Shown here piece by piece: positions 3,124 to 31,489 of a stretch of 64,000 nucleotides of DNA (position 1 is the first letter of the stretch; the number at the start of each line of letters is the position of its first letter). The position numbers and the translations under genes are program-made. The notes below the pieces were generated by a model. It was not told the origin of the DNA, searched no databases, and saw only the letters and a program-made list of their open reading frames with translations. This DNA comes from Pseudovirgaria hyperparasitica (taxonomy: Eukaryota), in assembly GCA_010093815.1 (NCBI GenBank), contig ML996571.1, one strand, 5' to 3'.

Positions 3124-4814
3124 ATGTCGAACGGCATTGTTGTTAGTGGTCCCCAAGCTGCGTGCAGCGACAAGAGCCATTCACGGCCACATTGCTACGA
3201 TAAGGGCCATGCTGATAGTATCACTTCATGTAGGGCGCAACTTATCAGGCCATCATCGCAAAGGTGATTGAGGCATCCGAGAATGATTTCCTCGAGAATG
3301 GTGTCGACCAGTCGTTACTGCACGAGATGAGAGAGGTAAGCCGAAATCCTACGTCGACGCACCACCTTTGTCGTCAAGCTGCGACATCATGTCTTCTGTT
3401 GTTATAGTCTCTGCCTGCAATCAAATATAGAAAGAGACGGGCGCAACTGTCATTTTGTCACTGCACTTCGCATCGAGATGGCGGCGTGGAGTTGAGTTTG
3501 GGTTGCGTTGCGTAGTGAGCGATGGCAAAAGCGGGGGTTGGACCGTTGGGCGAACATGGGACGAAGGTCGGGGGCGCTGCCGTGTATTTGGGGCATTTCT
3601 TATACCCAGAGTCATCGCTGACCCCGCCCCGCTTGTCCCTGTTTTGGACTAGCCTCTTACATCTTCCCTCTTCGCTTACTCACGTGATATGGGTCACCTG
3701 TTACTCCCTCTCAAGAGTATCGCCGCTAACTGGACTATGTCTCTAGGGATGGCAAAAACGCCTCACTGATTTGAAGGGTGCCAACTATCCATGGGATCCC
3801 ACACCTCCTCAGCCGATAAATCCACCCACTGTACCCTCGAATGGCCCGAAACCCGAGCAATCAACTACGTCAATGAACGGACAACAACCTGGCCAGCGTA
3901 GCAACTACACAGGGCCCCAGATCAAGCAGGAGATGAAGCAGGAAGATGGACTAAGCAACCTTCCTTCACAAGAATATCCGCCCCCCGTGCCGACTTATCG
4001 GTCTGGTCTTGACAGGAACGTAGCCCAGCAACGCGCTGCAGACCTTCTTCAGAGAGACTTTGGATCCCAGGCTGCTCAGTCCATAGCCGCTATTCCAACC
4101 CAAGCCAATGGACAACAGCGGCCACAGCACATCCAAATGCCCCCGCAGAATCAGCAACAGCAGATGCAGCGAATGCAGCAACACTTGCAACAGCAGGCAC
4201 AGCAACAGCGCCAGCAGCAGTTACAGCAGTTGCAGGCTCAGAACCAGCAGCGACAGCAACAACAGTCGAATGTGTATCAGGCACAACATGATGGTGCCGG
4301 TGATGAGCCCATGGAGTGGACTGCCCATCTTGCAGCAATGCACTCCCAGGGTGAAAGTAGTCGAATGGCTGCTGACGCTTTTCTCCAATCTCAAATCGAC
4401 TCACTCTCTGCGAGTATGGATAGTGGACTCCTTGTGCCTCTCGATGAGATCCCTGCGTCTAGGCGATCCAAGCTTAAGAAGGCTGTGAAGCGTCGAGCTG
4501 CTTGGGTGCCATCCCAAGCATCCTCAAGCGAGCCTCGCGTGCCCCAGCTTGATGGCATTGACGATGACGACGATGATGATGACGAGAAAAAGATACCCGA
4601 TGACGAAGCCATAAACTCGGACCTAGATGATTCAGAAGATGAGCTCAACGAAGCAGACGATGACAGCCAGGACATTGGCGACATCATGCTGTGCACTTAT
4701 GACAAAGTGCAGCGCGTCAAGAACAAATGGAAGTGCACCCTTAAGGATGGTATTCTCACCACTAATGGGAAAGACTACCTCTTCCATAAGGCTACTGGTG
4801 AATTCGAGTGGTGA
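3124..4814 (+). CDS. TOA1: Transcription initiation factor TFIIA large (alpha/beta) subunit
   Basis: Exons 3124-3141, 3234-3335, 3747-4814. N-terminal helix Y..II.KVIEASENDF..NGVD..LL.EMRE.WQ, Q-rich middle, QLDG cleavage motif, acidic tract, C-terminal MLCTYDKVQRVKNKWKCTLKDG...ATGEFEW. Confidence 0.96.
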
Positions 4815-6571
4815 GCGAACGCTACCACGTCTGCCGGTGGAACACTTACCACTGGCCTATAACATGATCTCATTTTATCTGCTGGTACCCCATGATGCAT
4901 CACTATGGCGTCTATGCTTGGGTTCTCTTTTTCAGTATGTTGCGCATCAGACAGAGGTGACTAATTTTGGATATATATATATATCCGGCATCACTCTGAC
5001 TAGGGGCGCTAAGGGACGGTCTCTTTTCCTGCAAGCACTAGTGTCGTGAACGACGTCTCGAGGATTGAGATGAGACAATACAGACTTTATCTCTGATGAG
5101 ATGAATCTAAGCAGAAGAGATATAGTATATAACTGAAAAAATTGGAGGGGGTTGACGAATCCTGTGCAATGTCCCCGGCCAATACTTGTTGTTGTGCACT
5201 ATTTGGTATCTGTTCAGTCAACACCAATTCGAGGACCTTGGGACACTCCCAGTCATATGCAGTAATGATGCACGTTCGCCGCTTTCAGCTTGGCGATGTC
5301 GGCGGAGTGAATCTAGGTGTCCGTGCGTCAGCATTCTTTCAAACAAAACACCAGCCCCCCAAAACCTTCTTGCCTCTCTCTTAACTCTGATTTCAGCCCC
5401 TTGGTTAGCTTTGACCAAACACAGCAAAGGGCTGAATGAGAATTGGATATCACCCGTTCCATGCCAACGTCCGACGTCGGCCATCTCTAGGAACCGCGAT
5501 GTTTAGTCACCCATAACAAGCTCTCCGGTGCCTCCCTTACGTCACTAAGAACAACTGAGCTCTGATTCGCGAGCCACGTAAGAAATAAGGCAGAAAATGA
5601 GTGATATTGTGTGTGTTAGATATCATGCCCGACGTCGGCGCCTTCATGCTCGAGCTTCTGTCATTTGGAAATTGGATGGAGTCTGCGTCTGCTTCCACCA
5701 AACAGCGGTACATACTTCCACTTTGATCGATTTGTGACTGATTGGGCGATTAGTTGCCAGTGTGAGAAAATCATGACATTAGTGACTTCGGTTTCTTCAT
5801 CCCAGAATGTGCGATTACGTGTCTTTTTTTTCCTTTCTTTATGATGAGTGAATGACTAGCAGTGTCCTTCAAACTGCGACGACGCTCTATCCTTATTGGT
5901 TAGCCGTATATGCATTGTAAATAAGCACAAGCGTTGAACATCATGACCGCAATCGGTGTGTTTCTATATAGATCTGTGAAACGCGGGCATGGTTGTGTGG
6001 GAGAATAGTGAATGGTAACGGCAGTGAACTAGTACAGTACAGAGCATCGATTGGCTACAACCACATCAAAAACGGGATAAACTGTCAAGGCGTTGGATGT
6101 CATGGCCGATGTCGGATTTTGCTGATGTGATACGGTGTCTGAGTGAATATTGTTCACTTGAGAAGGGGACTAGGTCGAGGCTTTTTTTGTGGGTGTTTCA
6201 TGGGTTGGGGATACAGAATCGTTGCTGGTGAGCGATGTTCGGCATGTTCGCTTTGTGCAATGCTTCGATTGGCTGTGTGAATGCTGGAACGGATAGTATT
6301 TCTTTCATGTGGAATGTCTTGGGCGATGTCGGCGGGAAAACTATTCATGATGAGTGGTACGCTTAAGCACCGTTGGCAGACAGGCTGGAACATTGTCCAA
6401 GGCAGACAAAGGAAGATAGGGGCGAAGATTTCACGGAGTCCTTCAGTGTCCAACCATAGATGACTAACAAAGAGTACATACTTTAGGAAGGAGCTGTCAG
6501 ACCGTCCAAAACGGGTGATTGTTTATAATTACAACCGGGCAGGTCACGCTTGAGGTCTCCATCGACGAGTG

Positions 6572-7694
6572 TTATTCCTCATCGTCATCGGTATTCACTA
6601 CGCCCCCATCTGCATTATTCCTGCCGTCTCCCACGTCATCTTCTTCTTCATCCTCTGTGCCTTCTTCATCACCGTCTTCGGCAAGTGGCACGAACACGAA
6701 GTCGATAAAACTGATCTTCTCTTTTTCCGTGTCTACCTCGATCATGAATTGAAGGTTCAACACGCCCTGATGATCCCCACGAATACTAACCTTGGTTGCC
6801 GCAGCCATGGCTCGTTGCGCAGCTTTGATAAGGCTGAACTTATAGCTGTTGACGACCTTGCCTCTCTTCCCACTTATGGCTGGCGAAACCATGAATGTTT
6901 CCAATAGTCCTTGCTCGCGAGACGAGAACTCAACTGTCGCACTACCAAGCGGGCCAGCGGCTGAAAGTGCAAAGTATGGCGCCACTGGACTTGCTGTTAG
7001 GGTCAATGTCTCGGGATTTGTTGCACTGAGTTCTAACAGAGCATCGTACAACCAGCTAGCACGCATGACAATCTTCAGCATTAGCGCGTCTCGTGCGAAT
7101 GGAATGTCCTCTGTGACAGTAGGCTCGTATGTGACGAGATCACAGGTCGTCGTGATGCCGCTCTCCTCAAGCACAATGCTGAGCGGTGCACCAGGTCGAG
7201 CGTAGCGTAGTTTACAGATGCCAGTAAGGCCTAGAACGCGATTATCGAAAGCTTGATTTATGTCTGGGGCGCGCGACCAGGGGTTGGTGCGTGTGCTCGT
7301 CAGGTCGGCAAGGCCAAAAATTTGGAGAGTCTCGAGGAGCGAAGGAAGGGATATCTCGAAGATTGGAGAAGTAGGCTCGTCGAGTTGGTCGTTATCGTCG
7401 CTTTTGAGTGTATTCGAATGTTGCGATGGTGGAGGAGCATTGTACTGGTAGGTCGTAAAGAGATCTTTTCCGAGGAACGCATGACCTGAACACTCTGAGC
7501 TGAGTGGTCCCTGTAATGGCCTCCCACATACCTTCCATGACACTACTGTCTTCTACACCAAAGCGCATACCAGCTTCAGATAGTCGGACCTGGGCTTTGC
7601 TTGCGAATGAAATACATCTTAGTAGTTGATAAAGTGTTCTTGCCGTGCTAGACACAGCACTGAACGTAGGTTGGTTATCGGTATCGTTCTCCAT
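6572..7694 (-). CDS. rad1: 9-1-1 checkpoint clamp subunit, Rad1/Rec1 (S. cerevisiae Rad17) family
   Basis: Two exons (intron 7486-7531). FSAVSSTARTLYQLLRCISF, GHAFLGKDLFTTY, LLETLQIFG, TTCDLVTYEP, KVSIRGDHQGVLNLQFMI, FIDFVFVP; acidic tail. Confidence 0.92.
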
Positions 7695-8497
7695 GGTCAC
7701 TGAGGGGGGAAACGGCCGATAGTAGAAGTAAATCAGGACCTTGATTCTTGTATTCAGCTATTGCCCGCGCCTGATACCACACCAGTATGATACAATAGAG
7801 TTCCTTGAACGCCGCGCTTTTGTGTTATGGGATCGAGGGAATAAGAGATTTAGACGTTGACGCCGACAGCACAGATCATATACACAGCGCCGAACCTAAG
7901 CGTACGTCAAAATGTTTCGTAGGTCATAGTAGAGTAGTTCACGAACCCGAAAGCTAGAGAAGCTGGAACGCCCAATAATGGAATGCTGATCATGGACCGG
8001 TCTTATATAAAGTTAATGTGTTTCTTCCATTGGGTATAGAGATGACATACTGAGACCAAAGATTCCTGTCAGAATGAGGCCTACAGAAGTCAGCCATGTG
8101 TATATCCCATTCACAGTCATGAGTGCCTACCGGTAAGCAGCAAGGCGAAGCCCACGGTGAATTGGCTGTCTTTGCCAACAGCAGGCTGATATGGGTTCGC
8201 AGCAGCGGCGTCCCAAATTTGCTTCAGAGGTGAAGACATTTATGATTGAACCGGAATTCTGCGTCTGAGTTAAAGGCAATCAATCAATGCAGAAGTGAGC
8301 TATTCGCGTGGCCTCAACTGCCCACGATGCGCCGTAGTTAGTCAATGCTTACTTGTCTCCAACAGGCGGTGTGAGCAGGCAAAATAACGCCACTTCCAGC
8401 GACGCGCTCCCACTAGTACTCCGCACCACTTGAGCAGTCGTTGGCTCGTCCTCCATCACCGAATACTCACGTCGCGCCTTCTGGAGAGACTACGATC

Positions 8498-10071
8498 ATG
8501 ACAGTGGCGAAAGAAGAAGGTATGTCTTACCATTCAACAAGCTGCAATTTTGAATTCATCGCGCTGGAGCCCGAGGCCAACTTGATCGAGATGCTCATTC
8601 ATGCGCCATCGGTCGCAAAGCACACTGGTCTAAATGCCTCGAAAAAAGACTGGGCCAGTCTCGGACTATATGGGAAGTCGTGCGGCATCGCTTCCGGCAA
8701 GCCGCAATCGATACCATGGCCTCGGGCTTCATCTCACAAGAGGTGCTACACGCGCACAGAGTATCGCGACTGACAGGCCTGTAGTCAAGCGGAAGGCTGA
8801 AGATGGCCTCAACGATGCAAGCCCCCTAAAGCGGACCAAGAAAGAGGACTCAGTGAGCTCAGTGGAAGATACCAAACCTCCAGCACCCCGAGCTGTGCCG
8901 TTCCCGGAGAAGGTATGCTGGACGATAGCCTTGACAAATTCCATGGCTAACGTTATTCTCAGCCAGCAGTGATTGAAGAGCGAAATGGCGAGATCGAGTT
9001 CAGGGTAGTAAATAACGACAACGAACGAGAGAGCTCAATTATCCTCACGGGCCTCAAGTGTATCTTTCAGAAACAGCTACCGAAAATGCCGAAGGACTAT
9101 ATCGCGCGATTAGTCTACGATAGAACCCATCTATCAATAGCCATCGTAAAGAAACCGCTCGAGGTAGTCGGAGGAATTACGTATAGACCGTTCAAGGGAA
9201 GACAGTTTGCAGAAATTGTATTTTGTGCTATCTCTTCGGACCAGCAAGTCAAGGGCTATGGGGCACATCTCATGTCGCATCTGAAAGACTACGTCAAGGG
9301 AACGTCGGACGTTATGCACTTCCTGACATATGCGGACAATTACGCTATCGGCTACTTTAAGAAACAAGGTTTCACGAAAGAAATAACGTTGGAAAGACCG
9401 CGGTGGATGGGTTATATCAAAGATTATGAGGGAGGTACAATCATGCAGTGTAGTATGGTTCCGAAAATACGGTATCTTGAGTCTGGTCGGATGCTCCTGA
9501 AACAGAAAGAAGCAGCCAAAGCCAAGATCAAGTCCGTCTCCCAATCTTGGGTATCTCATGATCCCCCAAAGGAGTGGAAAGACGGCATATGCAAAATCGA
9601 TCCACTGTCCATCCCCGCTATCAAAGCATCTGGCTGGTCTCCAGATATGGATGAACTCGCTCGTGCTCCACGCCACGGGCCTAATTATAACCAGCTGCTA
9701 CACCTCTTGAACGATATGCAAAACAACAGCAATGCATGGCCATTCCAGCAACCTGTCAACAAGGATGAAGTGGCCGACTATTATGACGTCATCAAGGAGC
9801 CTATGGATCTTGCAACGATGGAAGAGAGACATGAGAAAGACATGTACCCCACTCCTGAAGACTTTATCCGCGACGCCAAGCTCATATTCGACAACTGTCG
9901 GAAATACAATAATGAGACCACACCATACGCCAAGGCTGCAAACAGGCTAGAGAAATTTATGTGGCAGAAACTCAAGGAAGTGCCGGAGTGGACAGTAAGC
10001 CACTCGTTACAGTGACGATGTTTATGACTAACTGGCCCCAGCATCTCGAGTCAGAATTTACTGGCAAATGA
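8498..10071 (+). CDS. GCN5: Histone acetyltransferase GCN5 (GNAT domain + bromodomain)
   Basis: [48 protein letters not shown]; bromodomain AWPF..PV...[20 protein letters not shown]. Introns 8520-8784, ~8913-8962, ~9995-10041. Confidence 0.98.
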
Positions 10072-10866
10072 AGCACTATTTTGGTTCCATACTGTCAAGT
10101 GAAGCATTATCGGGTTATACTGGCGTTTGGCTGGCGTCGAAGATACCCTCGACAAGGACGTCGTTACTTGCTGTTTGATCGCATGGCTACGGTGGTTTTG
10201 GCGTTGAATCTACCCTTCTGGTTGACGTAATGAGAGCCGTCAACCACTTATATCACGTGTTACACATGGAAACGGTGGCAATTCTTCTGAATCTAAGTCA
10301 ATCTGGCCGTGAATAGGGGGCTCGCTATCAAGTAACACTCTTGAAGGTCATGTGCAATGTCAGTCGAAAACAAGGTTGCGTACTGGCGAATAGTTGATTA
10401 CTGTGGTGACCGGTCACAAATGACAAAGGATTGAGGGAACCCATTTCGTGAATGACTAGAACGAGTGTCTGTTTGTGATATAGATGGTGTTTGGTGATGG
10501 CAATTCAACGAATGATCTGGAGAGAGGGGATTTATGTAGGACCAGCACAGACTGAGCCGTCATGCATGATGCGGAATGTCGTTTTCTATTCATCCAGCTG
10601 AATCGCACTACTGTGTGGAACTCGGGTGAGGTTCAACAAGTAAATTTCCGCAGAACAATGACAACGCTTGATTCAAGGAGTAGCTACGTGCTATATGATT
10701 TAGATCTTCCAGGGGCAATTTGATGAATCCACAGTCAAAGAGGCTACCTAGTCGGGAAAACTCCTGAGACTCGCCAATCTCATTGGGATGTGGTTTTTAT
10801 CACATGTAAGTCGCCATGCACACCATCTCATTTACATCGTGAGTGTCAATGACATACCTAAACATA

Positions 10867-12707
10867 CTACGGTGCGTAAATGGATGTAAGTGGCTTGAGA
10901 AGTATTTCCAAAAGCTAGTGAATCAATGTTAGCGAAGACTTCTTATTCTTCTGCCTCTTTGGAAACCTACCCATGTCTCCAGATTTCGAGCATTCTCTTG
11001 TAGATCATCGAACTTGTCGTCGAGACGCTCTGAGTCAGATTAGATAAATACTCAGACCTCGTTGATTATGAGACCTACCAGCTGTGAGATAGAGCACCTG
11101 GCTTAGTTTAGACTCTTTCTCTAGTGCTCCCATGAACCATGTTGCATCAGGATGACTTCCAATTTGGTTAAGACAGAAAATTACAGCTGTGAACGTATTA
11201 GCAATAGACACTAAAGGTATGCAGATACACGTACTATCCCGGCGGTAGTTGTGCTCCTTGAGGAAATCCATGCATTCGACAATATTGTCCCGGAAAAACC
11301 CATACTCGATTGATATCTTGTCCTCGATACCATCTTTCGCGTCTTCTTGACACCAAGGACATCCATCGGTAGTCATCAAGATAAGTAATGGTCGTTCTAA
11401 TTCTTTACCGCTACTCACAACGTCGTAGACCAAGGGTTGTAGCACATTCTTCTTGAGCCCAGAGCCAATGGGCGTCCAGTTATTTTCGGATGGTTCGGCT
11501 GTCAGAATTGTGTCTACCTCATCACCCATCATTCCCGCACCTGCCATTGGATTGTTCTGGAAACGAAGAAATATTCCTCTTTTGTTTGGCACGGCCCGGT
11601 TTGTGATTTCTGTGATGCGCTTAACAAGACCACGCTGACGCGGCCACCGATTTTCGCCGTTACTGGGGAAGTCATCGCGCATAGAGGCACTGTCATCTAG
11701 ATAGATCTTTCAGTATGGCGCCTTTCAGGTCAAGCTCATACGAAGAGAATACATACCACAATATATGACAGGCTGGTACAGGGCTAGATTCGCGAGGCCT
11801 TGTAACTCTGGGGGTTCTTGCAAGGGGTTGCTAGGATCATTCTTAAGGTCGAAAACTTGTTTCGCTACGTCGTCCAAGTAGGTGTCACCAGGTTTATCGT
11901 AGAATCTCCCGAGGCCATTCTCGTTGATGGCATCTTGGAGATTATTCTTGAAGTCTTCTACAGTCTTAGGCTCATCGACTGTCTGTACCTACACGTCAGC
12001 CGATAGCTTATCGGTGACTTTAGATCTCTTACCTCTCCATCCGGTAATTCGGGGATCTTTGATCCCGCCACTTTGTAGAACACGTTCGAAGCAGCAGCTA
12101 GAATGCTACCGAGTGGCGTCCATCTGTTGAAGAATTTGAGGACATATACCGCCCAATTGGAGAAATACGTCAAGACACCTCCGCGATCCCTGTCCGGAAC
12201 AGTCTTGAGAGCGTCCTGAATCTTCTTTCTGGTGTCTGGATCTTGAATTTCTGCAGCCAAGTCTGCAGCAGTCTTGCCATCAGAGTTCTTCTTCTGTAGC
12301 GAAGCACCATTGCGTACGAGTAACTTGACAACCTCGGGATCTCGTCCAACAGCAACCGCCCTCATAAGCGGAGTTTCTTTCTTCGTGGAGGTTGGCTCAT
12401 CGAAGTTTCTGGCGCGCTTCGATAGGAGTTGCTGAACGATTCTTGCCCCGTTTTTGGTCAAAGATGCAGCGAAGTACATAGGAGTCTCGCCAGACCCATC
12501 TCCAACAGGTTTCTCAGGATCGGCTTTGTTGCTCAATAGCAGCTCGACATTTCTGAAGCGCATGCTATTGATGGCGTATACCAATGGCGTATACTGTAAC
12601 TTCTGGTCCGGCTCGTTGACAATGTCTTCGCCGCGCTCTTGAATATGATTAAGCAGCTTCTCCTTCGTGAAGCTTGCAGATCTTGCATCTTGCCATATGT
12701 CCGCCAT
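10867..12707 (-). CDS. Ankyrin-repeat protein with C-terminal vWA-like (MIDAS) domain, multi-exon
   Basis: Exon 1 has ankyrin repeats (YTPLVYAI, ETPMYFAA, ETPLMRAV, GKTAADLA). Splicing 12032-11989 and 11756-11698 gives LALYQPVIYC-DDSASM (DxSxS MIDAS), followed by WTPIG and LILMTTDGCP. Further introns at ~11.2, ~11.05 and ~10.95 kb; last exon LLEILLKPLTSIYAP*. Confidence 0.82.
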
Positions 12708-13212
12708 CGTTACGCAGATCAGTCACTGCACAAGACAAATCAATCGGCAAAGGATTAGAAAACGAAGAATTGTCTGCGGGCATTCAGATAGGTATATACT
12801 TGGTTTGGAGGTACTGATACATAGACCCACCAATGATCTGTAATACTCAACAGTTCACGGACCTAATCGGTCCCGCAGTACATGTGAATATCGAATTTTA
12901 CCACTTTCAGAACGATGTCTGAGATAAGGAGCATGTCAAATGTGGCATTTTTCTCCTTGAGCTGAATTGCATGGGGTTGGACCAATTAAATTCCGAATGT
13001 CAGCACCACTTCGACGTGGATCATGAGCGAATATGGTTAGGCTTCCCCATGCAACATGCGTTTCCGCGACGCCATACCCTTAATTATCAGAGCTGATGCG
13101 TGTGCAAGAAATCCTTGGAGATTGTGTACATTGATAGGAACTGAAGCCCCATGCAACTGTACACATCAGTTCTTTGCACCTCAGCTCTTTCTTGATACAA
13201 TACAAACCCAAT

Positions 13213-14214
13213 ATGTCCGACAACCGAGCTGCATTTCGTGACGCTGCTGACCGAAGGTTCATCATCCGAGACGCAGAGGACCAATTCGCGGAGGATAACG
13301 AGATAGTGATCAGAAACGCTGCTATATCACTCAACCCAGTCGACAAATATACCTTGTATGACAGATTTCCTCAGATTCCAGGTGCTGATGTTGCTGGAGA
13401 AGTCATAGAAGTCGGACTTGATGTGACAGCATTCCAAGAGGGCGATCGAGTCCTGGGTCATGCTTTGGCAATCGGAACAAAGGAGAACAGACACGGCGCA
13501 TTCCAACGATATACTGCCATACCAGACAATATGGCAGCCCGTATTCCACGCCACATATCATATCAAAGCGCTGCTGCTCTTCCCCTCGGTGTCTCAACCG
13601 CAGCAGCGGCTTTGTTCCAGAAGGATTTCCTGGCGCTTTCCAATCCCACTGTTCCTCCGGCAACTTTGTCAGAGCCTAGAGCGGTGGTCATAATCGGCGC
13701 GTCAGGCAACGTTGGAAGTAACGCGGTGCAATTAGCAAAAGCAGCTGGCTACACTGTTATCGGGACAGCATCCACCAGTAGCGCCAAGCTGGTCAAAGAC
13801 CTTGGCGCCCAAGAGGTGGTGGATGATCGAGTGAACGATAAGAACGTCGTAGTCGAGAACGTCAAGAAGGCGTTGAATGGGATGGACATTTGTGGAGTTT
13901 TTGATGCTGCTGGGATGCCAGGAACGCATAAACTCGCCAGAGATATCGTAATTGCTGTGTCTGGTCGCAAGATCGCAGTAACTACTCAGAGCTATGAGGG
14001 TGAAGGCCTTGAATTCGAAGGCGTAACGTTGATGGATGTTATGGCTGTTGCTATCCAGAATAACGAGGTCGGTAAGATGGTCTACGGATTCCTACAAAAG
14101 GCCCTCCAGATGAAGTCATATCAGGTGCCGGATACAGTAGTAGTCGGCAAACAACTGGGAGATATCTATGGCAATCTAGACGGGCGCGGGAAGAAGATCA
14201 TTCTAATGGAGTAG
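13213..14214 (+). CDS. MDR-superfamily NAD(P)H oxidoreductase (enoyl-reductase/zeta-crystallin-like)
   Basis: Single ORF; AISLNPVD, PGADVAGEV, GDRVLG, HGAFQRY, AAALPLGVSTAA, Rossmann IIGASGNVGSNAVQLA. Confidence 0.9.
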   Translation: MSDNRAAFRDAADRRFIIRDAEDQFAEDNEIVIRNAAISLNPVDKYTLYDRFPQIPGADVAGEVIEVGLDVTAFQEGDRVLGHALAIGTKENRHGAFQRYTAIPDNMAARIPRHISYQSAAALPLGVSTAAAALFQKDFLALSNPTVPPATLSEPRAVVIIGASGNVGSNAVQLAKAAGYTVIGTASTSSAKLVKDLGAQEVVDDRVNDKNVVVENVKKALNGMDICGVFDAAGMPGTHKLARDIVIAVSGRKIAVTTQSYEGEGLEFEGVTLMDVMAVAIQNNEVGKMVYGFLQKALQMKSYQVPDTVVVGKQLGDIYGNLDGRGKKIILME

Positions 14215-14812
14215 GCATTAGAAGGCGGTTGTGTATGAATTTGCACGGAACAAGATTCCGAAATGAAGGCACGTGACTCATGTATATGTCTTGGCAATCC
14301 CTAAATTCGCGCTTCGGCGACTCTCTCATCATCCCATTTCATTCTTCTTAATCGGACCTGACGCACATAAAATGGATATTCTATTCGCTTGCTCGATCAA
14401 GAAGTGAGATCAGCAAAATCTATGCAATTCCACAAGCCAGCATAACGTCACCGACATCCATGCCTGCTCCTTATCCTCCCGAACAACAACACATTTATGC
14501 ATGCAGTAAGCCTCCACATAGATGCATGATCTCAGCCAGCCACTGCATATGCATGCATAGTCACATTTGAACGCAATATCTGTTTCGATCTAACTCCGAT
14601 GTATCTTATCGCTGTAAATATCCCATACGAGCGTAGTGATCGAGATGTGACAGCAGAATCGTGGTTTTATGGAGCGCGGCCGAAAGTGCTTGATGATTGG
14701 ATATATCCTGATCAGCTTTGAGCGCAAAACATGGCGAATGCCAGGTATAGATATCTCCATAATCTGCCTATACAGGCGAAAAGCATTCCCCTAAGAAGCG
14801 CATCATTTTGAC

Positions 14813-17656
14813 ATGGCTCGCAAGACCTATCCCATTCGTGGTATCGCAGCAGGAATCGGTGGCAATGGCGAGGTACCAGTAAGAAGAGAGTTTAGTGAGT
14901 GGACGACCAGTAGCGATCCTCAAGACGCAAGACAAGTCATTCTATTCTTTTTAGCTCTTGATCGTTTCCAAAAGGTCCATCCGTCCGATAGAGACTCGTA
15001 CTTTCAAATTGCAGGTTTGTCAGGCATCTTCTGTCATGACACGCTGTCATGGAGTAACTCACACCAGCTAGGGATTCATGGCTATCCGTATGAATCATGG
15101 GATGAAGATAATCTTACCGAGACCGAGATCCAAGGCGCAGGTAACACTCGAAGAGGGTATTGTATGCATGCAAATGCCTTGTTTCCAGTCTGGCATCGAC
15201 CATATCTTCTTCTGTATGAGGTAAGAGTTCAAAATAGTTTTTCTGGATCGGCAGCTCTTCACTGAAATTGAAAGCAACGAATCTATGAGTCTATGCTCGA
15301 AATCATCGAAGAGCGACCGAATGACAGCAAAGATGAGTGGAAGAAAGCGGCAAATACCTGGCGATTGCCGTTTTGGGACTGGGCCAAGAATCCCATACCA
15401 AAGTTTCTAAGCTATCCTACGCTGAATATCAAGATAGATGGCAAGTCAGTGCATCTTGAAAACCCCATGTACAAATTCAAGATGCCCAATGACGAGCCGA
15501 TGAGCCAATATGGGGTGGGGAGCTTACGGAATCTTGACACAGGTATAAACCTAAAGGTGAGAATTCATGAAGACCTGGTCAGAAATCTCTGGTCCTCGAA
15601 ATAGATTATTAATATTGGCTTATTTTATAGTACGGCGATTGCCATGCGACAAGCCGTGGTCTTGACCGTGACAAGTGGCCCACCGAAAAGCAGTGGATTG
15701 AAGGATTTGTCGATGACGATCAAGCCAATGTGATGTTGAAAGGGCATGGGTCTATAACTGGCTTTGATTATGGTGCTGCTTCTGAGCTTGTGTATCGGCT
15801 CTTGACGTATCCCCTAGATTGGGGTTCCTTTGCAACCCTCGCTCGAGATCTAGATGAGACATCAGTCACAGCAAGTACGACGAAGGTCATGAAAGATATC
15901 AATCTGGAATTTATTCACAACAACATTCACTACTGGGTTGGCGGAGGTAAGAATCTTCGGTCTGTGGCTGTTACCTTAATACTACTGACTGTATGACTAG
16001 ATGGGGGACATATGTCGCAAATTCCTGTAGCTACATTTGACCCGGTGTTTTGGCTTCACCACTGGTACATGTCCGGATTTCATTCTATATCATCATCTGA
16101 CTCCCTATAGTAACATTGATCGCTTGTTTGCTGTATGGCAGACCCTGAATCAAGACATAAAGCAAGATTCTACAGGCGTGGGTGGTGACAAGGAAAAGTG
16201 GTTTGATGTGGATCAACAGAGGTATTTTGACCAAAAAATCGTTGGGTTGGGGGATGCAATCACGAACAAAACTCCTTTGCGTCCATTCCATAAAGATGAA
16301 CATGGCACGATGTGGACGCCGCAAGACGCAATCAACTGGTACAGTCTCGGGTACACTTATCCAGAACTTCAGCCTTGGAAGAGCAAGGATCATACCATTT
16401 ACAAGGAACAACTCTTCGCAAACATGAACGAAGCATATGGTCAAGTCAGAAGAGAAGCTCTCGGAGGAGTTGCCGGGAAAACCGAGATCATCGATAAGAA
16501 TAAGGATGGGACGGTAGACTTGAACGACTATGCCATTAGCGTATCTTTCAAGAAGTGAGTTGCTCAAGCTACGCCGAAATGACTCTGACTCAATCACAAA
16601 GGTTTGCTTTCAATGGGGAGCCTTTCAATCTAGAAGTCTTCCTTCGCCCTGACGATGCACCGAGAGATCGAAAGTCGTTCGCCAAGGACGAATTTGTTAC
16701 GAATGTTTACAATTTCAGTCAACCAGCCGAACGTGACGGACAAGAAGTGTGCTCCAACTGTGCCGATCGACAAGCAGACGACGTCATGATTCAGTCCTAT
16801 ATCCCACTAACATCTTATCTGATAAAGATGATACAGCAAGGGCGCTTGGACAATCTCAAACCAGTAACTGTAGAGAAATTCCTCCAAGGCTTATACTATC
16901 GCGTCAAGATGAATGGAGAGGTGGTGGATGAAGCGAAATGGCTCAGCAAACCCGAATTCGGACTAAAAGTTGACGTGTTCCAGATGAAGATGACATTCTC
17001 AGAAGATCCATCGGTTGTGCCTGGGCGCACAGAGCCAGTGATCATTCCTACACTGGGCGTTGGCCCCGACCGCGATAATGCTTCCTCGACGTGAGTAAGA
17101 TGAATACTTCGTTTGGCCCAGGCAGCTGATCTGCAACAGAACCGGTGTGACTGATCTTATCACTGTAAACAAGATTAATCCTCTTGCACAGCCCATCTCC
17201 GACGGTGGGTCGATCGTCTTCAGATGTCCTAGCAGTGTCTCCACGAAATCAAATCGCGAAAGCAAAGACACTCTCTCTCTGCTCTCATACCCGGATGGCA
17301 GTACTAGAGACCCCTTTGACGAAGACAGCTACGATTTCGTCCTCAGTATTTTCCTCCGCAGCAAAGCCCAGACGCTAGAGTTCGATAGTCGAGAGGCGGG
17401 TAAACCTTATGTCAATGCCAAAAGCTTAGACACCAATGCTTGGATTCAGCAAGGCGATGCAAAGATCCAGATTGATCTCAAGCCGGACCAGTTTGACATT
17501 TGGGTCGACGGCAACAGTGTTGGCTCGATTGATAGGACGGTGAAAGGGAGAACGATCACACATGTGAGAAACTGGGTTATGTCTGGAAAGCAGCCAGTTC
17601 TTGGCAAAGATATTGAGGCGACAACATATAAGTCATCGGGTCATGTACAAGGTTAA
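14813..17656 (+). CDS. Tyrosinase (type-3 copper) with C-terminal shielding domain and a probable spliced galectin-like terminal domain
   Basis: CuA: AGIHGYP, YCMHANALFPVWHRPY; WRLPFWDWA; CuB: EFIHNNIHYWVGG, ATFDPVFWLHH(C)NIDR; LGYTYPE; C-domain with CSNC. Several short introns; intron 17091-17139 joins ORF 16555-17094 in frame to ORF 17147-17656. Tyrosinase call is firm; the fusion is predicted. Confidence 0.9.
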
Positions 17657-17799: not shown

Positions 17800-18564
17800 T
17801 CACTCCTTGATCTCTCTTAACCTCTTCTCTTTCTCCACAATATCTCTCTCCAACACATCTTCCCTCCCCATCATTTCTTCCAACCTCCTTTCGTCCTTCT
17901 TCAACCACTCTCTACCATCCCTCGCCTTTCCAAACCGTCCATACCCACGCAAACTTTCTTCATTACCAACACGATTGGCCATCTGAGAGTGCAGGACTCG
18001 TGCTCTCAACAGGTCAGCCTTTAGCTTCAGCAGGGCCAGCCTAGCATTCCGGATCTCGGTGATTAAACGGTCTCGCTCCTTTTCGCGTAAAACCAGGGTA
18101 TCAACCTCATCCAAAGCTTGATTATCATCTCGCGTCTCTGTACCTGGGCAATCCTGTTTTGCCTCCCGAAGACCTAAAGGATCGGCAACGTAGAGCCCGA
18201 ATGACACAACGATGAACGACGCCGTGGTAGTAAGGGCGAATGAGAGGGCCTCGCAAGAGTATTTTCTAAAGTTAGAGAGCACAGGTGGCCCTGGAGAAGT
18301 GTGTTTGATATGTCCCTTCTTCTGGCTGTGCATTAGGGGTTCGGGCAGGCGTACGGCTTTAGCCCGAAGTGTAGGTTTGGTACTGCTAGCTGCAGGCCTC
18401 TTAGAGGCGTTCTTGGCTAGCCAGACGTTTGTGGTGGTTATCGAACGTTGCTGTGTATTCATAGCAGTCTGAATAAGGTTTCTCTGGGGAGCGAAGTTCC
18501 TCAAGTTTGGACGCGTTGTTGCCAACGGTCGTGCGATGGAGTGAGATATTCTGAAGATATTCAT
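17800..18564 (-). CDS. Hypothetical protein, possibly mitochondrial, single TM + coiled coil
   Basis: 254-aa ORF; R/S/T-rich acid-free N-terminus resembling a presequence, hydrophobic segment ALSFALTTTASFIVVSFGLYV, charged coiled-coil C-terminus. Confidence 0.6.
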   Translation of the reverse strand: MNIFRISHSIARPLATTRPNLRNFAPQRNLIQTAMNTQQRSITTTNVWLAKNASKRPAASSTKPTLRAKAVRLPEPLMHSQKKGHIKHTSPGPPVLSNFRKYSCEALSFALTTTASFIVVSFGLYVADPLGLREAKQDCPGTETRDDNQALDEVDTLVLREKERDRLITEIRNARLALLKLKADLLRARVLHSQMANRVGNEESLRGYGRFGKARDGREWLKKDERRLEEMMGREDVLERDIVEKEKRLREIKE

Positions 18565-19513
18565 GGTGGTGGAGAAAATAGCAATAATGACTGGGATTTT
18601 ATGACGGTGTAATATTCGAAGAAAGACGTGTGTGGGAAGCTCTTGTGGACGAATAGTGTCTTATGATGGTAAGATATATGTCCTATCAACAGTCTTGGAC
18701 ATTTCTGATAGATGGCTCACAGCTGCAAACATCGTGGGTTTGCTTGAGAGAACAAATGTCTCTAGGAAGAAACCAAAGGTAGAAAGAATGAAAGGAATAG
18801 GTCGCACGAACTTTTCGACACAAAGACAAAGAAATCAACAAACGATGGGGAAATGTTGCACGGATTCTCATACAATGTTTCATGCAAAGTATACGTATAT
18901 GGGCATCGAAGGCTTAAGGAATAATTTCAAAGGAAGTGCTATGGGCATCGCAATGACAAGATCCGGGTACAAAGCAAAGCAAGTGCTTGAATCATCTCAT
19001 TCACCACAGCTGCTCTATAATAATCATCACCTTGTTATGAGTTTCAGCTATCAGTTCCATTCATCGAATGACGTCCTGTAACAACTTTGAACAGAGTGGA
19101 GAAGATAATATAGCACGATGAGACCCTGATCTCAATGTTCAATCTTCGCGCGACGATAGAGCGACCCATTTCGAAGAGTGAGAAAGTCTTGTTTCGCCGA
19201 CCAAGAGAACCAAAGCTACCATAGATCTACTTTCGCAAAGATATCTGTGCTGTAGGTTGCGGCATATCTGATTGTGTCGAGTGGAGAGACACATACATGG
19301 ATGAATTAAGTAGGCCACATCGATTCCTCGGGATATCTGCCAAGTGAGTATCAAGGAAGCAGTCTGGATTCGCAACAATCCGCTGCTTCCTGCTCTGGTA
19401 GTAAAAGGCAACAATGCGCTGCACATCATGCTGTAAGTAGATAGACATGCTCCGAGGCTATGTAGAGTCAATGATTCCACTGGCCAAACGAAGAAGACTA
19501 CAACATTATTCCT

Positions 19514-21059: not shown

Positions 21060-22275
21060 GCTGGGAAGAGAACGCTGAGAAAGGCACGGTAATTGAAACA
21101 AGAGTATGTATCTTTTGGTGCGCCTACAGCGCGCACATATGATCTGCGAAGCTCCTTGCAGTGACAAGGTAATAAGCTATAATATGCAAGAGTCGAGATA
21201 ATCCAAACGCCAAGAGTTTGGCAGAGATGCGTGGTCACGTGCGGATCGATATCTTTGGGCAGCTGGTAAGTTATGTCTTCTCTATGATCATCAGCACTTT
21301 TTAATAGTACTCCTTGATGTTCACCAGCGCTACATTCACTTTAATTACTGCTATTAATTCTGAAGCTCACAAACACCCTAAACTTGGTGTTCAGCCAAAT
21401 TCGGGAATGGGCTTTATTGAATACGTTGACCCCTTGCTGTGGAGACGTATTCGCTTTGTTGGTGGAGAGCCACGCGGTCTTTGACCTTGCCAATGCGTAC
21501 TGGTGTTACGACTCATGCAAGTCTTCTCAGCGACCGGCGGCTCATGCGGAAAATAAGACTGTGAAGAATTCAGATATCTCTGACTGGTATGGAACTGATA
21601 CAGGGGCTGCTTCGTATCAAAATCACCTGCAGGAAGCGCCCGGCTGGAATGACGGCGGTTTGAGACTGCTCATACGAAACCGCGAAGCTTATCTGCCTGA
21701 GCTGATATATTGGCAACAACGAGCAGTGTAGAACAGAGACAATCGGACGCTGTTTAAGTACGTGTCCGTGTTGTAGCGTACCTAGTCAAGAATTTGGATT
21801 AATCATATTAGACCGAAACGGAACGGCCCACGCATGGTTTTCGCGGTCCCCGCCTAGCCAGGCAGGGCAAGTCAGGGTCCCATCGGGGAAAGAACAGCGC
21901 TTTCAGCTGCGACAAACTTAGCGACCTTAGGCAGCTTATAAGGTAGGCGCTGGCGCTGGTCACCGGCCCCGGGCTGCCGGTCCCACTCCATCTCTCACTC
22001 GACGCCACTGCCACCTCGATTACTCAGATACTCTCTATCGTCGCATCTTCTCACCACACCTCCCTCGGCGCTGCCCTCACCCCTCCGCGAAGCTGGCCTT
22101 CCAGATCCGCTGATATCACCTGAAGTCTACATCTTTGTTCCTCTGCACTCTTCCCTACTTTCCGTAGGATCATAGCGATGTTAATATGACACTCTGAATA
22201 TCTCCGGTCCTCCATATTCCTTTGCGACAATCTCCGATACCTCACGCCAACCTACTTGGACCGCCATCACTCACA

Positions 22276-25200
22276 ATGTCGGGTTCCTCCCAACCCGCGT
22301 CTCTTTTGGATGCCGATCGAGCCCTTCCCACACCCCGAATTCCGACACTGGCGATGACCGCGACAGCAATGACAACAACAACGTTGAAAGTAGAGGGCAT
22401 GACTTGCGGAGCTTGCACCTCTGCAATCGAGAGCGCCTTTGAAGGCATTGAAGGAGTAGGAACGGTGAGCGTGAGCTTAGTAATGGAAAGAGCTGTTATC
22501 GTCCACGATTCTGCGAAGCTGTCCCCCGATCAAGCAAAGGAAATGATTGAGGACCGCGGATTTGATGCCGAAGTACTGTCGTCCGACCTTCCGACTGCGC
22601 GAGCCGTCGACAACATCATTGAAGAAGCCAACATATCCCTGATGACCACCACTGTCGCAATCAGCGGTATGACGTGCGGTGCATGTACGTCGGCTGTGGA
22701 AGGAAGTTTCAAGAATGTCGCAGGCATCAAATCATTCAGTATTTCTCTGCTTTCCGAACGAGCAATTATTGAGCACGACCCTAGCATAATAGCACCAGAG
22801 CAAATTGTAGAGGTCATCGATGACACTGGATTTGACGCAACCATCATGGAATCGCAAGCATCACAGCTTCATAAAATCGACACCCGGAAAACAAAGATTC
22901 TAACCACGACCGTCGGCATAGAAGGTATGACATGCGGTGCATGCACGAAAGCAGTCACGGACGGATTTGATGGGGTAGATGGCATCCTACAATTCAATAT
23001 TAGCCTCTTGGCAGAAAGAGCTATCGTGGTTCACGATCCTAGTAAGATCACTGAAGACCGAATAGCCGAGATAATAGATGATTGTGGCTTCGATGCGAAG
23101 ATCATATCGTCTTTCGAAGGCGGATCTCAGAGCTCAAAAAGTTCGTCTTCAGTGTCTCTCAAAATCTATGGCATGTCGAAAGCGGAGCATGCATCCGATC
23201 TTGGGGATAAAATCTCAGCTGTGACTGGAATCACGTCCGTATCGATCAATCTCAGGACCACCCGTGCTGTCATAAACTATAAACCCACAATAGTTGGTCT
23301 TCGAACAATCGTAGATACTATCGAAGCAGCAGGATTCAATGCACTGATGGCCGACGCTGACGATAACAACGCCCAACTCGAGTCACTCGCGAAAACAAAA
23401 GAGATCCAGGAATGGCGTCGCGCTTTCAGAACATCTCTGATGTTTGCTGTCCCGGTACTCTTGACGAGCATGATACTGCCCATGTGCATACCGGTCTTGG
23501 ACTACGGCAGTTGGGAGATCACCACTGGCCTGTGGTTCGGTGACCTTGTTTGCTTAGCTCTTACAGTCCCAGTCCAGTTTGGTATTGGAAACCGGTTTTA
23601 TGTCTCCGCTTATAAGTCTATGAAGCATGGCTCACCCACCATGGACGTTCTTGTTGTATTGGGCACATCGGCCGCATTCTTCTTCAGCCTTGCTGCGATG
23701 ATCGTGTCCATAGTGGTCCCACCTAACACCCGCCCAGCGACTGTATTCGACACAAGTACAATGCTTATTACTTTTATTACCCTAGGACGCTATATGGAGA
23801 ACAGAGCTAAAGGCCAAACTTCGAAAGCTCTCTCTAGACTGATGTCGCTGGCACCATCGATGACAACAATTTACGCAGATCCCATTGCCGCAGCCAAGAT
23901 CGCGGAGGGATGGGAATTACCAGAGAAATACTCAAAGCCCACAGAGGCTGCATCTGGCTCCTCCGATGAGAAAGTGATCCCGACAGAACTTCTCGAATTG
24001 GGGGATATCGTGATTATCAAGCCAGGCGACAAGGTTCCTGCCGATGGTCTCGTCATTCGTGGCGAGAGCTATGTGGATGAGAGCATGGTGACTGGCGAAG
24101 CTATGCCCATCCAGAAGAAGAAAGGCAGTTTCCTCATGGCTGGTACTATTAACGGTGCTGGTAAGATGGACTTTAGGGTCACTCGAGCAGGCCGTGACAC
24201 TCAACTCAGCCAAATCGTTCGTATGGTGCAAGAAGCGCAAACTAGCCGTGCGCCGATTCAGCGTATCGCTGATAAAGTCGCTGGATACTTTGTGCCAATA
24301 ATAATCACCCTTGGTCTATCTACATTCCTTGTCTGGATGGTGCTTAGCCATGTCCTTCGAAGACCACCAAGGATCTTCCTCGACGATGAAAGCGGCGGCA
24401 AGGTCATGGTTTGCGTTAAGCTTTGTATCTCTGTCATTGTTTTCGCCTGCCCATGCGCACTTGGTCTGAGTACACCTACCGCAATCATGGTGGGCACTGG
24501 CGTCGGCGCAGAGAACGGCATTTTAGTCAAAGGAGGAGCTGCATTAGAAACCGCTACCAAAGTCAATCATGTTGTTCTAGATAAAACTGGGACTCTGACT
24601 GTTGGTAAGATGGCTGTATCCAACTCAGACATTCTTGGGCTATGGAAGGATGACACTCAGAAGCAGCGACTGTTCTGGACCTTAATCGGGTTGGCTGAGA
24701 TGAATAGCGAGCATCCTATTGCCAAAGCCATTGTAATTGCTGCGAAAGACTATTTGAACATTGGACCAGAGTCTGCTCTCGACGGTAGTGTTGGTGACTT
24801 TGAAGTTGTTCCAGGGGAAGGAATCTCGGCCTTCGTTGAGGCCGCTATCTCCCCCGAACGCAAACGTCACCGAGTCCTTGTTGGAAACGCGCCGTACCTC
24901 AAGTCTCAAGGCATCAAACTCCCGGACGGTGCAGATGATGAAGAAGACCCTCGCACAACCCTCGACTCTATTCGTTCTGTAGAGGACCGTAATCCATCCT
25001 CTAAATCTGACGACCTGCGCTACGCTGGGACTACCACCATATACACCGCTATCGCAAATGAATACACCGGCACAATATCTCTGGCAGATTCGCTCAAGCC
25101 AGCCGCGAGATCTACAATTCTGGCCCTCGCCCGTCTCGGCATCTCGTCGTCTATCGTCACCGGCGACACACTTCCATCTGCTCTCGTCGTGGCATCCCAA

Positions 25201-30514: not shown

Positions 30515-31489
30515 CTACTCCTCGCCGACATACATGAAAGATACTCCCATGATGTCGTCGTATTTCCCATCGTGTTTCAACGCTTTAGCCGAATCATACG
30601 TTACAGAGTATTGCAATTTATCGCCAACTTTGATGATACCGAGATCCTTGCACTGAGAACCTCCTGAGACGTGGGCAAGCCCATCAGAACTAACAAAATT
30701 CGCATTCGCCCCGTACGATTGCTCTGAAATGCAGATGTGCTGGTCATTGAGACTCAAGGTAGAGTTAAGTCCACCATCATGAACGTGGGACTTGGCCACT
30801 AACAAGCGTCCTGCTACAGTGGATGTCCATGAGTCCGAATCATATGTGGAGATGCCAGGGACCAAAGTAACATCGCCATCTCCGCATGGTGCTCCTATGT
30901 TCGTCCAAAGTAGCTGCGCCTTGTGATACTTGATGCCTTCTGGACTATTCTTTGGAATCCATTCGTAGTGCACGGAGATCTGGACTTCTTTGTCTTCGCC
31001 CGATTCGTTCATTATCTCGACAACGTTGGTCCACTCTGCGTCTTTGCTGACATAGTAGCCCCAGGGGCCATGCTCGTCCAGCCGCCACTCAGGACGCTCA
31101 TTGCCGGAAGTGAAGAATAGATCTCCAGCCATATTACCACAGACCGCATCTACCTCTTTGTTGTTGAACTGCATGAAATGGTGTAGCCAGACACCAGAAT
31201 CCCAATTTGCGGGAGTACCATCAAGATAGGTGAGGTCGGCTTGCATGGCGACGATGTAGCAGTCTGTGCATGGCTTTGAAGCGTCTGTCTCTGGTGGAAA
31301 GGATGACATGGAATGGCGAGCTAATTGATACGTTGAAACATCCTTTCGAGTCTGCAGATCCTCGATCATCGAGCCAGCACCATACGTTATAGTGGTCTTT
31401 CGAAGCGGCGATGTCGATTTGGGTCCATGTGCAGCACTAAACGGCGCCTGCGTCAGAAGAAGACTCAAGAATAGAAGAAAGTACGCCAT
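30515..31489 (-). CDS. Secreted protein with PHM/DBH-like copper-monooxygenase motifs
   Basis: Signal peptide MAYFLLFLSLLLTQAPFSAA; PCTDC, WLHHFM, SGNER, SHVHDGG, DIMG; paired Cys. The ORF is solid; the function is inferred. Confidence 0.75.
   Translation of the reverse strand: MAYFLLFLSLLLTQAPFSAAHGPKSTSPLRKTTITYGAGSMIEDLQTRKDVSTYQLARHSMSSFPPETDASKPCTDCYIVAMQADLTYLDGTPANWDSGVWLHHFMQFNNKEVDAVCGNMAGDLFFTSGNERPEWRLDEHGPWGYYVSKDAEWTNVVEIMNESGEDKEVQISVHYEWIPKNSPEGIKYHKAQLLWTNIGAPCGDGDVTLVPGISTYDSDSWTSTVAGRLLVAKSHVHDGGLNSTLSLNDQHICISEQSYGANANFVSSDGLAHVSGGSQCKDLGIIKVGDKLQYSVTYDSAKALKHDGKYDDIMGVSFMYVGEE

Follow-up and report, generated by a model that had tools for sequence, protein, structure and literature searches.

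A tyrosinase with a C-terminal galectin fold linked to an ankyrin-vWA gene in filamentous ascomycetes

In fungal pro-tyrosinases of the MelB/PPO4 type a C-terminal domain shields the enzyme, which stays latent until that domain is cut or moved aside, and the activated enzyme turns phenols into o-quinones, which cross-link and melanise. To our knowledge, the activation and intracellular targeting of cytosolic fungal pro-tyrosinases are largely an open question. In arthropods, prophenoloxidase is a latent phenol oxidase coupled to recognition proteins, and melanisation is local. Mushroom galectins have an anti-nematode or defence role, and the lectin subunit of the mushroom tyrosinase PPO3 is of the beta-trefoil type. 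Here we describe a locus of Pseudovirgaria hyperparasitica, lying in a 64-kb stretch of fungal DNA (G000:C7:1300186-1364185, where G000 is the source genome; the whole stretch is called the window), in which a tyrosinase-galectin gene (Tyr-Gal) is found with an ankyrin-vWA gene (Ank-vWA) and a zinc-free reductase gene (MDR). The linkage is conserved across Dothideomycetes, Xylariales, Eurotiales and Onygenales, and in Aspergillus the tails of Tyr-Gal and Ank-vWA have been exchanged. That these two genes work together in some functional unit seems to us very probable.

All three genes are open and intact after splicing by coordinates, and they lie between GCN5 and GWT1 as the original prediction had placed them, with one extra open reading frame (ORF) before GWT1. 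Ank-vWA (10867..12707, minus strand) encodes 525 residues in six coding exons (12707-12033, 11982-11758, 11697-11235, 11186-11079, 11029-10971 and 10914-10867), and its model equals the public record P0121 (KAF2758741.1). Tyr-Gal (14813-17656, plus strand) encodes 820 residues in eight exons, with a model identical to P0001 (KAF2758743.1); the one accession number between the two records is left for MDR (13213..14214, plus strand; a single exon, 333 residues). Two sequencing runs of one sample of unrecorded kind, X3 and X4, were read as RNA because their contigs skip introns, whereas the DNA run X1 skips none. Contigs of both runs join the tyrosinase gene across seven of its seven introns, including the intron at 17091-17139 that fuses the galectin exon, and they join five of the five coding introns of Ank-vWA (four in both runs, one in X4 only); a further intron in the 5' untranslated region of Ank-vWA (12774..12830) is joined in X3 only. 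These joins show that the genes are transcribed and that the galectin exon is a genuine part of the tyrosinase transcript.

The pro-tyrosinase part (exons 1 to 7, 14813..17090, residues 1-649) has all six copper ligands (H70, H100, H109, H307, H311 and H337) and the thioether cysteine Cys98, each of them kept in 49 to 51 of 51 aligned homologues. Pfam finds in it a Tyrosinase domain and a shielding Tyrosinase_C domain (PF18132, E 3e-18) with C536-x-x-C539, a CxxC motif present in 51 of the 51. The predicted model (mean predicted local distance difference test score, 82.5) had A. oryzae MelB pro-tyrosinase as its best structural match in Foldseek. MelB and Agaricus bisporus PPO4 (PDB 3W6Q/3W6W and 5M6B) share with the window tyrosinase the fold, the latent architecture, the type-3 copper core, the Cys-His thioether motif and the C-terminal CxxC shielding domain (phmmer E 4e-59; Foldseek E 1e-33, 26% identity); unlike them, the window enzyme has an additional C-terminal galectin fold and a linked Ank-vWA gene. 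Because it is without an N-terminal hydrophobic signal stretch (highest 19-residue hydropathy, 0.73), the tyrosinase is probably cytosolic, and by its architecture probably latent. One 204-residue fragment in the family, P0179, is labelled Phytophthora cactorum and shares a 90% cluster with Daldinia tyrosinases; it is likely assembly contamination.

The galectin fold occupies the last 171 residues (exon 8, 17140..17656, residues 650-820). A profile built from 16 sequences matched the mushroom galectin CGL3 best (E 5e-16), followed by AAL/ACG and CGL2, and in Foldseek the domain superimposed on CGL3 with a root mean square deviation of 1.9 A over 166 columns. Among the best 120 of 260 tyrosinase homologues, 87 carry a galectin domain and 3 carry a vWA domain instead. 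We divided the 87 by rank into 49 close and 38 distant homologues (one distant-ranked protein, P0059, resembles a close-type member) and compared their beta-galactoside sites, using the galectin numbering as placed through the alignment to CGL3. The canonical residues H, N, R, N, W, E, R read S, F, R, D, Y, A, S in the window, that is, one of seven is kept. In the close group the His is present once and the Glu and the last Arg never, among the sugar-site residues tallied, whereas the distant group keeps R, N, W, E and R in 37, 36, 32, 37 and 32 of 38. Conversely, an acidic loop ending in [DE]x[YF][DE] is found in 40 of the 49 close but only 1 of the 38 distant homologues; in the window it spans residues 706-714 (17309..17335, plus strand). 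Judged from these residues, galactoside binding by the window domain is unlikely, and the widespread tyrosinase-galectin family appears to divide into a glycan-binding branch and a putative protein-docking branch. The sugar-site-retaining subfamily (P0055-P0092, the locus L048:9662-11125 and L022; it occurs in Penicillium, Aspergillus, Paracoccidioides and Histoplasma, where it includes a 'photo-regulated tyrosinase') may be a glycan-targeted phenol oxidase. A stretch of 40 to 50 residues of the galectin beta-hairpin is also matched repeatedly by repeat proteins of about 1300 to 4300 residues (P0142, P0144-P0146 and similar), which is probably generic similarity.

The Ank-vWA protein consists of ankyrin repeats (about residues 1-170), a hydrophobic or amphipathic helical linker (about 175-215), a helical subdomain and a vWA domain. 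The repeats are detected by Pfam and reach a Z of about 20 to DARPins and natural ankyrins. The vWA domain is not detected by Pfam, and its exon had no significant sequence match in PDB; structure searches with the model of the protein, which is poor in the vWA part, returned ankyrins only and covered the ankyrin part alone. The fold emerged from Atlas, where its features scored 0.93-0.95 to VWA/vWA-TerF-like clusters, its structure matched two entries that carry the name PF00092 over the aligned part (TM scores of 0.65 and 0.57), and a 126-member Ascomycota ankyrin cluster matched the vWA part at a TM score of 0.87. Searches for 'longer' proteins gave only one and two matches, which is weak evidence on family size. 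The metal ion-dependent adhesion site (MIDAS) is complete (D301-x-S303-x-S305, T375 and D411), and it is kept in eight of eight full-length vWA proteins and in the Xylariales-like contig L029 described below. A NACHT or NB-ARC domain, as in a fungal NOD-like receptor (NLR), was not found by Pfam in P0121 or P0122, which gave ankyrin only. The domains that the original prediction assigned to both proteins, ankyrin-vWA with a MIDAS and tyrosinase-galectin, were borne out by Pfam, profile, Foldseek and Atlas results and by the MIDAS residues.

The same genes occur together in other fungi. A metagenome set comprised 80 tyrosinase loci, 13 of them of at least 15 kb; a galectin domain was present in three of the 80 and a vWA domain in one. 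L029, a Xylariales-like metagenome contig with long flanks, carries a close-subfamily tyrosinase (62-66% identical to Xylariales proteins) and has Tyr-Gal, an aminotransferase-like stretch, MDR and Ank-vWA. All three cluster genes fit into about 10 kb there, and MDR and Ank-vWA diverge from each other as they do in the window. Its MDR matches the window MDR best among 16 matches in the source genome (E 8e-69 versus 2e-17), and its ankyrin exon matches the window Ank-vWA best among 7 (E 2e-34 versus 1e-6). GCN5 and GWT1 are both absent from the flanks of L029. L029 also carries an adenylation (AMP-binding) gene of the nonribosomal peptide synthetase (NRPS)-like type upstream of and divergent from the tyrosinase (6807-9285, minus), an Aminotran_3-like gene within the cluster (13390-14906, minus) and a P-loop fragment resembling a degenerate NB-ARC, with no Pfam match (4362-5006, plus). 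In Aspergillus cavernicola, Tyr-Gal (P0028) and Ank-vWA (P0122) have consecutive accessions (KAL2825952.1 and KAL2825953.1) with equal listed contig size. L048, the sole long locus of the sugar-site-retaining subfamily, has no ankyrin, vWA or MDR gene in 20.6 kb (n=1).

Published tables extend the linkage to the Onygenales; papers are cited here by PMC number, each for the part of it available to us. In Blastomyces ATCC 26199, an MDR (BDFG_04928, ADH_N plus ADH_zinc_N), two ankyrin genes (BDFG_04929 and BDFG_04930, the latter with one predicted transmembrane helix), the tyrosinase (BDFG_04931) and a PNP_UDP gene (BDFG_04932) stand in a row (PMC4595289, file 21); by locus tag, BDFG_04931 is P0041. 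B. silverae keeps this spacing (EMPG_09647, which is P0010, with 09648 and 09650), as do the Histoplasma orthologues (PMC5852033, file 6), and an MDR orthologue, AI79_09291, lies two numbers from P0053 (AJ79_09293) if the two prefixes share a numbering (PMC5852033). In Histoplasma G217B a 'pfs' protein, TYR5 and an 'ankyrin repeat protein' are consecutive (PMC12505909, file 3), and from this neighbourhood TYR5 appears to be the linked tyrosinase. A PNP_UDP gene adjoins the tyrosinase in both Blastomyces and Histoplasma, and its domain class has been tied to fungal immune cell death (PMC12881547). The Blastomyces proteins P0132, P0135 and P0136 are PNP_UDP proteins with an unannotated C-terminal domain, encoded directly beside the tyrosinase, and one 1405-residue Blastomyces model fuses the PNP_UDP protein and the tyrosinase, probably through an annotation merge. 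The flanks differ between lineages, with GCN5 and GWT1 in the window, neither of them in L029, and ATG2 and a nitrilase in Blastomyces. On the co-occurrence that the original prediction had proposed to check, the outcome is in its favour: all three families are linked in L029 and in Blastomyces and its relatives, and two of the three in A. cavernicola.

A second tie between the genes comes from Aspergillus, in which their tails have been swapped. In seven species a tyrosinase with its Tyrosinase_C domain is followed by the same vWA module in place of the galectin domain (Tyr-vWA; six full length and one model that ends at the vWA start), and in A. pseudoustus a protein with the same ankyrin N terminus is fused to the galectin domain (Ank-Gal, P0155). 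The best non-self matches of all four halves are to the A. cavernicola pair: the Tyr-vWA protein P0037 is 71% identical to P0028 in its tyrosinase and 75% to P0122 in its vWA domain, and P0155 is 56% identical to P0122 in its ankyrin part and 57% to P0028 in its galectin domain. In a tree of 38 tyrosinase domains the Tyr-vWA proteins cluster with P0028 (support 1.0). The swap products keep the MIDAS (Tyr-vWA) and the acidic loop (Ank-Gal), and Tyr-vWA also retains the catalytic His residues, except that some gene models lack four residues at CuB. By their matches the four swapped halves go back to a single locus, and a single inversion with breakpoints inside two oppositely oriented genes, arranged much as in the window, would yield both Tyr-vWA and Ank-Gal. 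An invertible switch in the window genome was considered and rejected, because the domain junctions lack long inverted repeats (arms of at most 24 nt, at 75-79%). The reciprocal exchange of tails ties the Tyr-Gal and Ank-vWA genes together, and with the linkage it gives good support to the idea in the original prediction that they act as one unit; for the reductase that idea is moderately supported.

MDR has ADH_N and ADH_zinc_N domains by Pfam and a glycine-rich NAD(P)H-binding loop. It is without the pattern of catalytic-zinc ligands and aligns with LovC at those positions. LovC was also its best PDB match (E 2e-24), above the human quinone oxidoreductase (QOR) 1YB5 (E 2e-16), with a strawberry enone reductase and other QORs among the remaining top matches; it is closer to LovC/CipB-type enoyl reductases than to the zeta-crystallin type first proposed for it. 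LovC, Aspergillus CipB and the yeast proteins YCR102C, YNL134C and YLR460C are likewise zinc-free MDRs, although the window gene, unlike LovC, is without a polyketide synthase (PKS) partner. From family and position we infer that the window MDR is orthologous to CipB. The Blastomyces cluster MDR shares an orthogroup with Afu4g00700 and AN7895 (PMC5852033), the latter being the A. nidulans cipB that is named with the dba cluster (PMC6316066). That MDR is a mere passenger was an idea we dropped after L029 and the Blastomyces table; it is the usual but not obligatory third member of the locus, with a looser linkage than the other two.

These features suggest a mechanism in which Tyr-Gal and Ank-vWA would be the two subunits of a single phenol-oxidase module in the cytosol. 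In a MIDAS, the ligand contributes an acidic side chain that completes the site. The galectin domain may have been turned into a protein-docking module, its acidic loop being a candidate ligand that would complete the vWA MIDAS and so tether the ankyrin repeats to the tyrosinase; the chain Tyr-[Gal::vWA]-Ank would then be preserved when the tails are swapped. We favour this docking because the linked subfamily has lost the sugar site and gained the acidic loop, while L048 is without the partner genes. The ankyrin repeats and the hydrophobic linker would place the complex at a target or membrane, with Ank-vWA positioning or restraining the tyrosinase, so that the enzyme would become active locally in response to damage or to another organism's attack. 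The activated enzyme would then yield o-quinones and, through them, local cross-linking and melanisation, and the NAD(P)H-dependent MDR would reduce escaped quinones or enones. That Ank-vWA docks and controls a cytosolic pro-tyrosinase for a triggered local output of quinone or melanin, with the reductase limiting self-damage, is in our judgement possible but somewhat short of probable. A role in defence or wounding is suggested only indirectly, through the kinship with mushroom galectins, the PNP_UDP neighbour and the het-B precedent. The fullest form of the proposal, to which we hold only tentatively and which we think doubtful as a whole, is an intracellular, prophenoloxidase-like immune or wound module of filamentous ascomycetes: an Ank-vWA sensor would hold a latent tyrosinase through a metal-bridged vWA-galectin clasp and would free or activate it at a breached or invaded hypha, the reductase would protect the cell, the halves of the clasp would be interchangeable between genes, and a sister subfamily would be aimed at glycans.

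Expression and promoter data bear on whether the genes work together. BDFG_04929 to BDFG_04932 reach their highest values in the mould, where they exceed yeast grown in the same medium by about 2- to 6-fold (PMC4595289). For TYR5 of Histoplasma and the ankyrin gene beside it, three contrasts are in agreement: both genes are flat between yeast and hyphae, they lie close together in one dibutyryl-cAMP contrast, and both fall with butyrate (PMC12505909). Co-expression of the homologues, which the original prediction had proposed to check, is weak: agreement in Blastomyces and Histoplasma is partial, and the Blastomyces MDR is near silent. CATGCA/TGCATG words number 8 in the intergenic DNA of the cluster against 2.2, shrinking to 3+3 when overlaps are left out (three of them in the divergent region between Ank-vWA and MDR); these non-overlapping counts were reached by 8 and 27 of 300 shuffles, and 7 of 32 control loci had at least three per 550 bp. 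We treat this enrichment as a weak lead. Three ACE-like words lie upstream of the tyrosinase in the window and again in L029 (10/300 and 6/300 shuffles reach the count). Words of both kinds are mildly over-represented at window 12708-13212 and 14215-14812 and at L029:16927-18190 and 9286-9982, a weak and post hoc observation. An 11-mer shared between the two promoters was rejected as a signal, since about 0.15 would be expected by chance (an estimate).

Several observations weigh against the proposed mechanism. Linkage was examined for a handful of the 49 close homologues, the Onygenales cases count as one inherited event, the vWA domain of the Onygenales ankyrin neighbour is inferred rather than observed, and no MDR lies between Tyr-Gal and Ank-vWA in A. 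cavernicola. Both swap products were not found together in one genome, Ank-Gal is known from a single predicted protein, and a domain swap can be a tolerated accident between neighbours. A contact between the ankyrin repeats and the tyrosinase would survive the swap equally, so that the interface is not fixed by it. A complex prediction for Ank-vWA, Mg and the galectin domain scored 0.00 in two single-sequence runs without alignments, which speaks neither for nor against. Members of the MDR orthogroup occur in 22 genomes, among them A. fumigatus, A. nidulans, A. flavus and Coccidioides (PMC5852033, file 6); the linked ankyrin orthogroup covers 13 genomes, and its row has no entry for those four in the part of that source available (PMC5852033). 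Deletion of the copper-induced A. fumigatus cipB left growth on copper normal, and in the accessible part of the same paper menadione sensitivity is reported for ccsA only and not for cipB (PMC8425704). In Blastomyces the mould-phase rise is shared by the nearby ATG2 and BDFG_04926 and may be regional, and values in fragments per kilobase per million were 0-0.11 for MDR, 1.7-13 for the tyrosinase and 0.1-1.3 for the ankyrin gene (PMC4595289). The other four Histoplasma contrasts disagree (for example, 0.35 versus 1.38 and 0.11 versus 1.08; PMC12505909). The weak co-expression, the spread of the MDR orthogroup and the cipB data keep four other readings in contention.

The tyrosinase and a LovC-like, trans-acting reductase could tailor a metabolite or pigment in a small-molecule pathway, with Ank-vWA as scaffold or regulator; LovC as nearest solved relative of MDR, the AMP-binding (NRPS-like) and Aminotran_3-like genes of L029 and the description of AN7895/cipB as a dba cluster gene (PMC6316066) are in its favour. 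We think this unlikely, as no PKS/NRPS-type gene was found among the 34 window ORFs of at least 170 residues (a count that may overlook genes split by many introns into short exons), the window has none of the additional enzymes of L029, the Blastomyces rows 04921-04933 shown have no annotated backbone enzyme (PMC4595289), and the galectin/vWA swap would go unexplained. Distinctly unlikely, in our view, is that the genes are co-regulated or merely co-inherited neighbours without a physical link and that the swap was a harmless inversion. Expression levels do differ widely within the Blastomyces locus (PMC4595289), the genes vary in their order and orientation and have other genes inserted among them, and MDR family members are also found without the linkage (PMC5852033); set against this, the linkage persists across the four lineages despite their differing flanks, and the swapped forms retain the catalytic His residues, the MIDAS and the acidic loop.

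If the vWA protein were a dedicated assembly or copper-loading factor for the tyrosinase, comparable to the vWA adaptors of metalloenzymes, and MDR answered copper stress, the copper induction of A. fumigatus cipB (PMC8425704), the ACE-like words upstream of the tyrosinase in the window and L029, the copper ATPase gene 4.5 kb downstream and the direct tyrosinase-vWA fusions of Aspergillus would all fall into place. The tyrosinase nevertheless has its own CxxC shielding domain in all of the aligned homologues, the scanned ORFs of the window and of L029 included no MoxR/AAA+ partner (the genome was not searched for one), the Cys beside the MIDAS Asp is not conserved in L029, and the ACE-like counts are weak and post hoc; we regard such a maturation module as improbable. 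We give the least credence to an allorecognition or guard pair, in which the lectin fold would read the neighbour's allele and a mismatch would fire the tyrosinase, giving a pigmented barrage and cell death. An effector with a lectin fold and an adjacent partner does parallel het-B (PMC10890737), the galectin and ankyrin parts (32% and 42% identity, window versus A. cavernicola) are more divergent than the tyrosinase and vWA parts (52% and 47%), a PNP_UDP gene is the neighbour in Onygenales, and L029 has its NB-ARC-resembling P-loop fragment, without a Pfam match. However, no letter differences from the window are listed for S2, the one further sample, and the vWA domain is 71-75% conserved within Aspergillus, unlike a balanced het allele.

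As to descent, the locus is an island in its gene content, as originally described, but not in its composition: GC content at third codon positions is 0.52, 0.50 and 0.49 in the three genes, at the low end of nine other window ORFs (0.50-0.60), no signal of repeat-induced point mutation or of a composition island was seen at the locus, and no long repeats flank it. The galectin and vWA exons have at least one match each in the source genome, and the tyrosinase family has at least 19 exon-level matches, these counts being lower bounds. The tree of 38 tyrosinase domains is not species-like. Constraining the two Dothideomycete copies together was not rejected (approximately unbiased (AU) test, 0.37; 20 sequences and 2000 replicates, below the program's advice), whereas a constraint uniting the Xylariales with the Sordariales copies was (AU 1e-8), a conflict that transfer or hidden paralogy could explain. 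Horizontal acquisition into the window genome, which the original prediction had raised for a gene-tree check, is thus not supported, vertical Dothideomycete descent being compatible with the AU value of 0.37.

The start codons of Ank-vWA and MDR are 505 bp apart (12708..13212), in line with the divergence of about 500 bp first noted, and the same divergence is seen in L029. One contig in X3 and X4 spans GCN5 into the convergent Ank-vWA (10042-10914), suggesting overlapping 3' ends, and an X3 contig traverses the gaps between Ank-vWA and MDR and between MDR and the tyrosinase, although contigs do not show single transcripts. The ORF between the tyrosinase and GWT1 (17800-18561, minus) has no Pfam match and no homologue in L029; its N terminus is basic, its C-terminal region is charged and helical, and it contains a hydrophobic stretch. 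An intron upstream of it, at about 18668-18721, is spliced. Farther along the window are a Ccc2-type Cu-transporting P-type ATPase with four HMA domains (22198-25827, 4.5 kb downstream of the tyrosinase), an apparently secreted His/Met-rich protein of about 325 residues (30515-31699, minus; a weak SURNod19 match, E 1e-4, below the cut-off) and an assembly gap, a run of N bordered by a short tandem repeat (about 49400-49950).

Each domain of this locus is already known and tyrosinase-lectin association has a precedent in PPO3, but the conserved module is apparently undescribed: in our literature search, which did not reach most subscription papers or several supplements, neither the Tyr-Gal fusion and its two branches nor its link to Ank-vWA nor the swap was found described, in agreement with the original prediction, which had not recognised a described cluster. 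The locus offers a candidate regulator of a tyrosinase, a candidate interface between the MIDAS and the acidic loop of a galectin that has lost its sugar site, and, in the swapped proteins, controls provided by nature, so that the question of how such an enzyme is switched on becomes directly testable with four small domains. If the defence reading is true, fungal innate immunity would have, in addition to NLRs, gasdermins and HET domains, an arm that works through an enzyme and melanisation.

Among known systems, arthropod prophenoloxidase serves as a working analogy; it is extracellular and driven by a protease cascade, and no homology of regulatory parts has been shown. In Podospora het-B (Bh/Bp), two genes are likewise adjacent, and recognition of the neighbour's product depends on a lectin fold at the C terminus; the pair differs in its HET-domain effector, its FB-lectin type and its PII-like partner, and tyrosinase, ankyrin and vWA have no mention in the available part of that paper (PMC10890737). 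The mushroom galectins CGL2, CGL3 and AAL/ACG have the same galectin beta-sandwich as the window domain, but they are free sugar-binding lectins, whereas the window domain is fused, retains one of seven site residues and has an acidic loop inserted. Agaricus bisporus PPO3 (PDB 2Y9W, by its entry title) is likewise a fungal tyrosinase tied to a lectin-fold protein; its lectin is a separate subunit, whereas in the window a galectin fold with a degenerate sugar site is fused to the enzyme and has a putative vWA partner.

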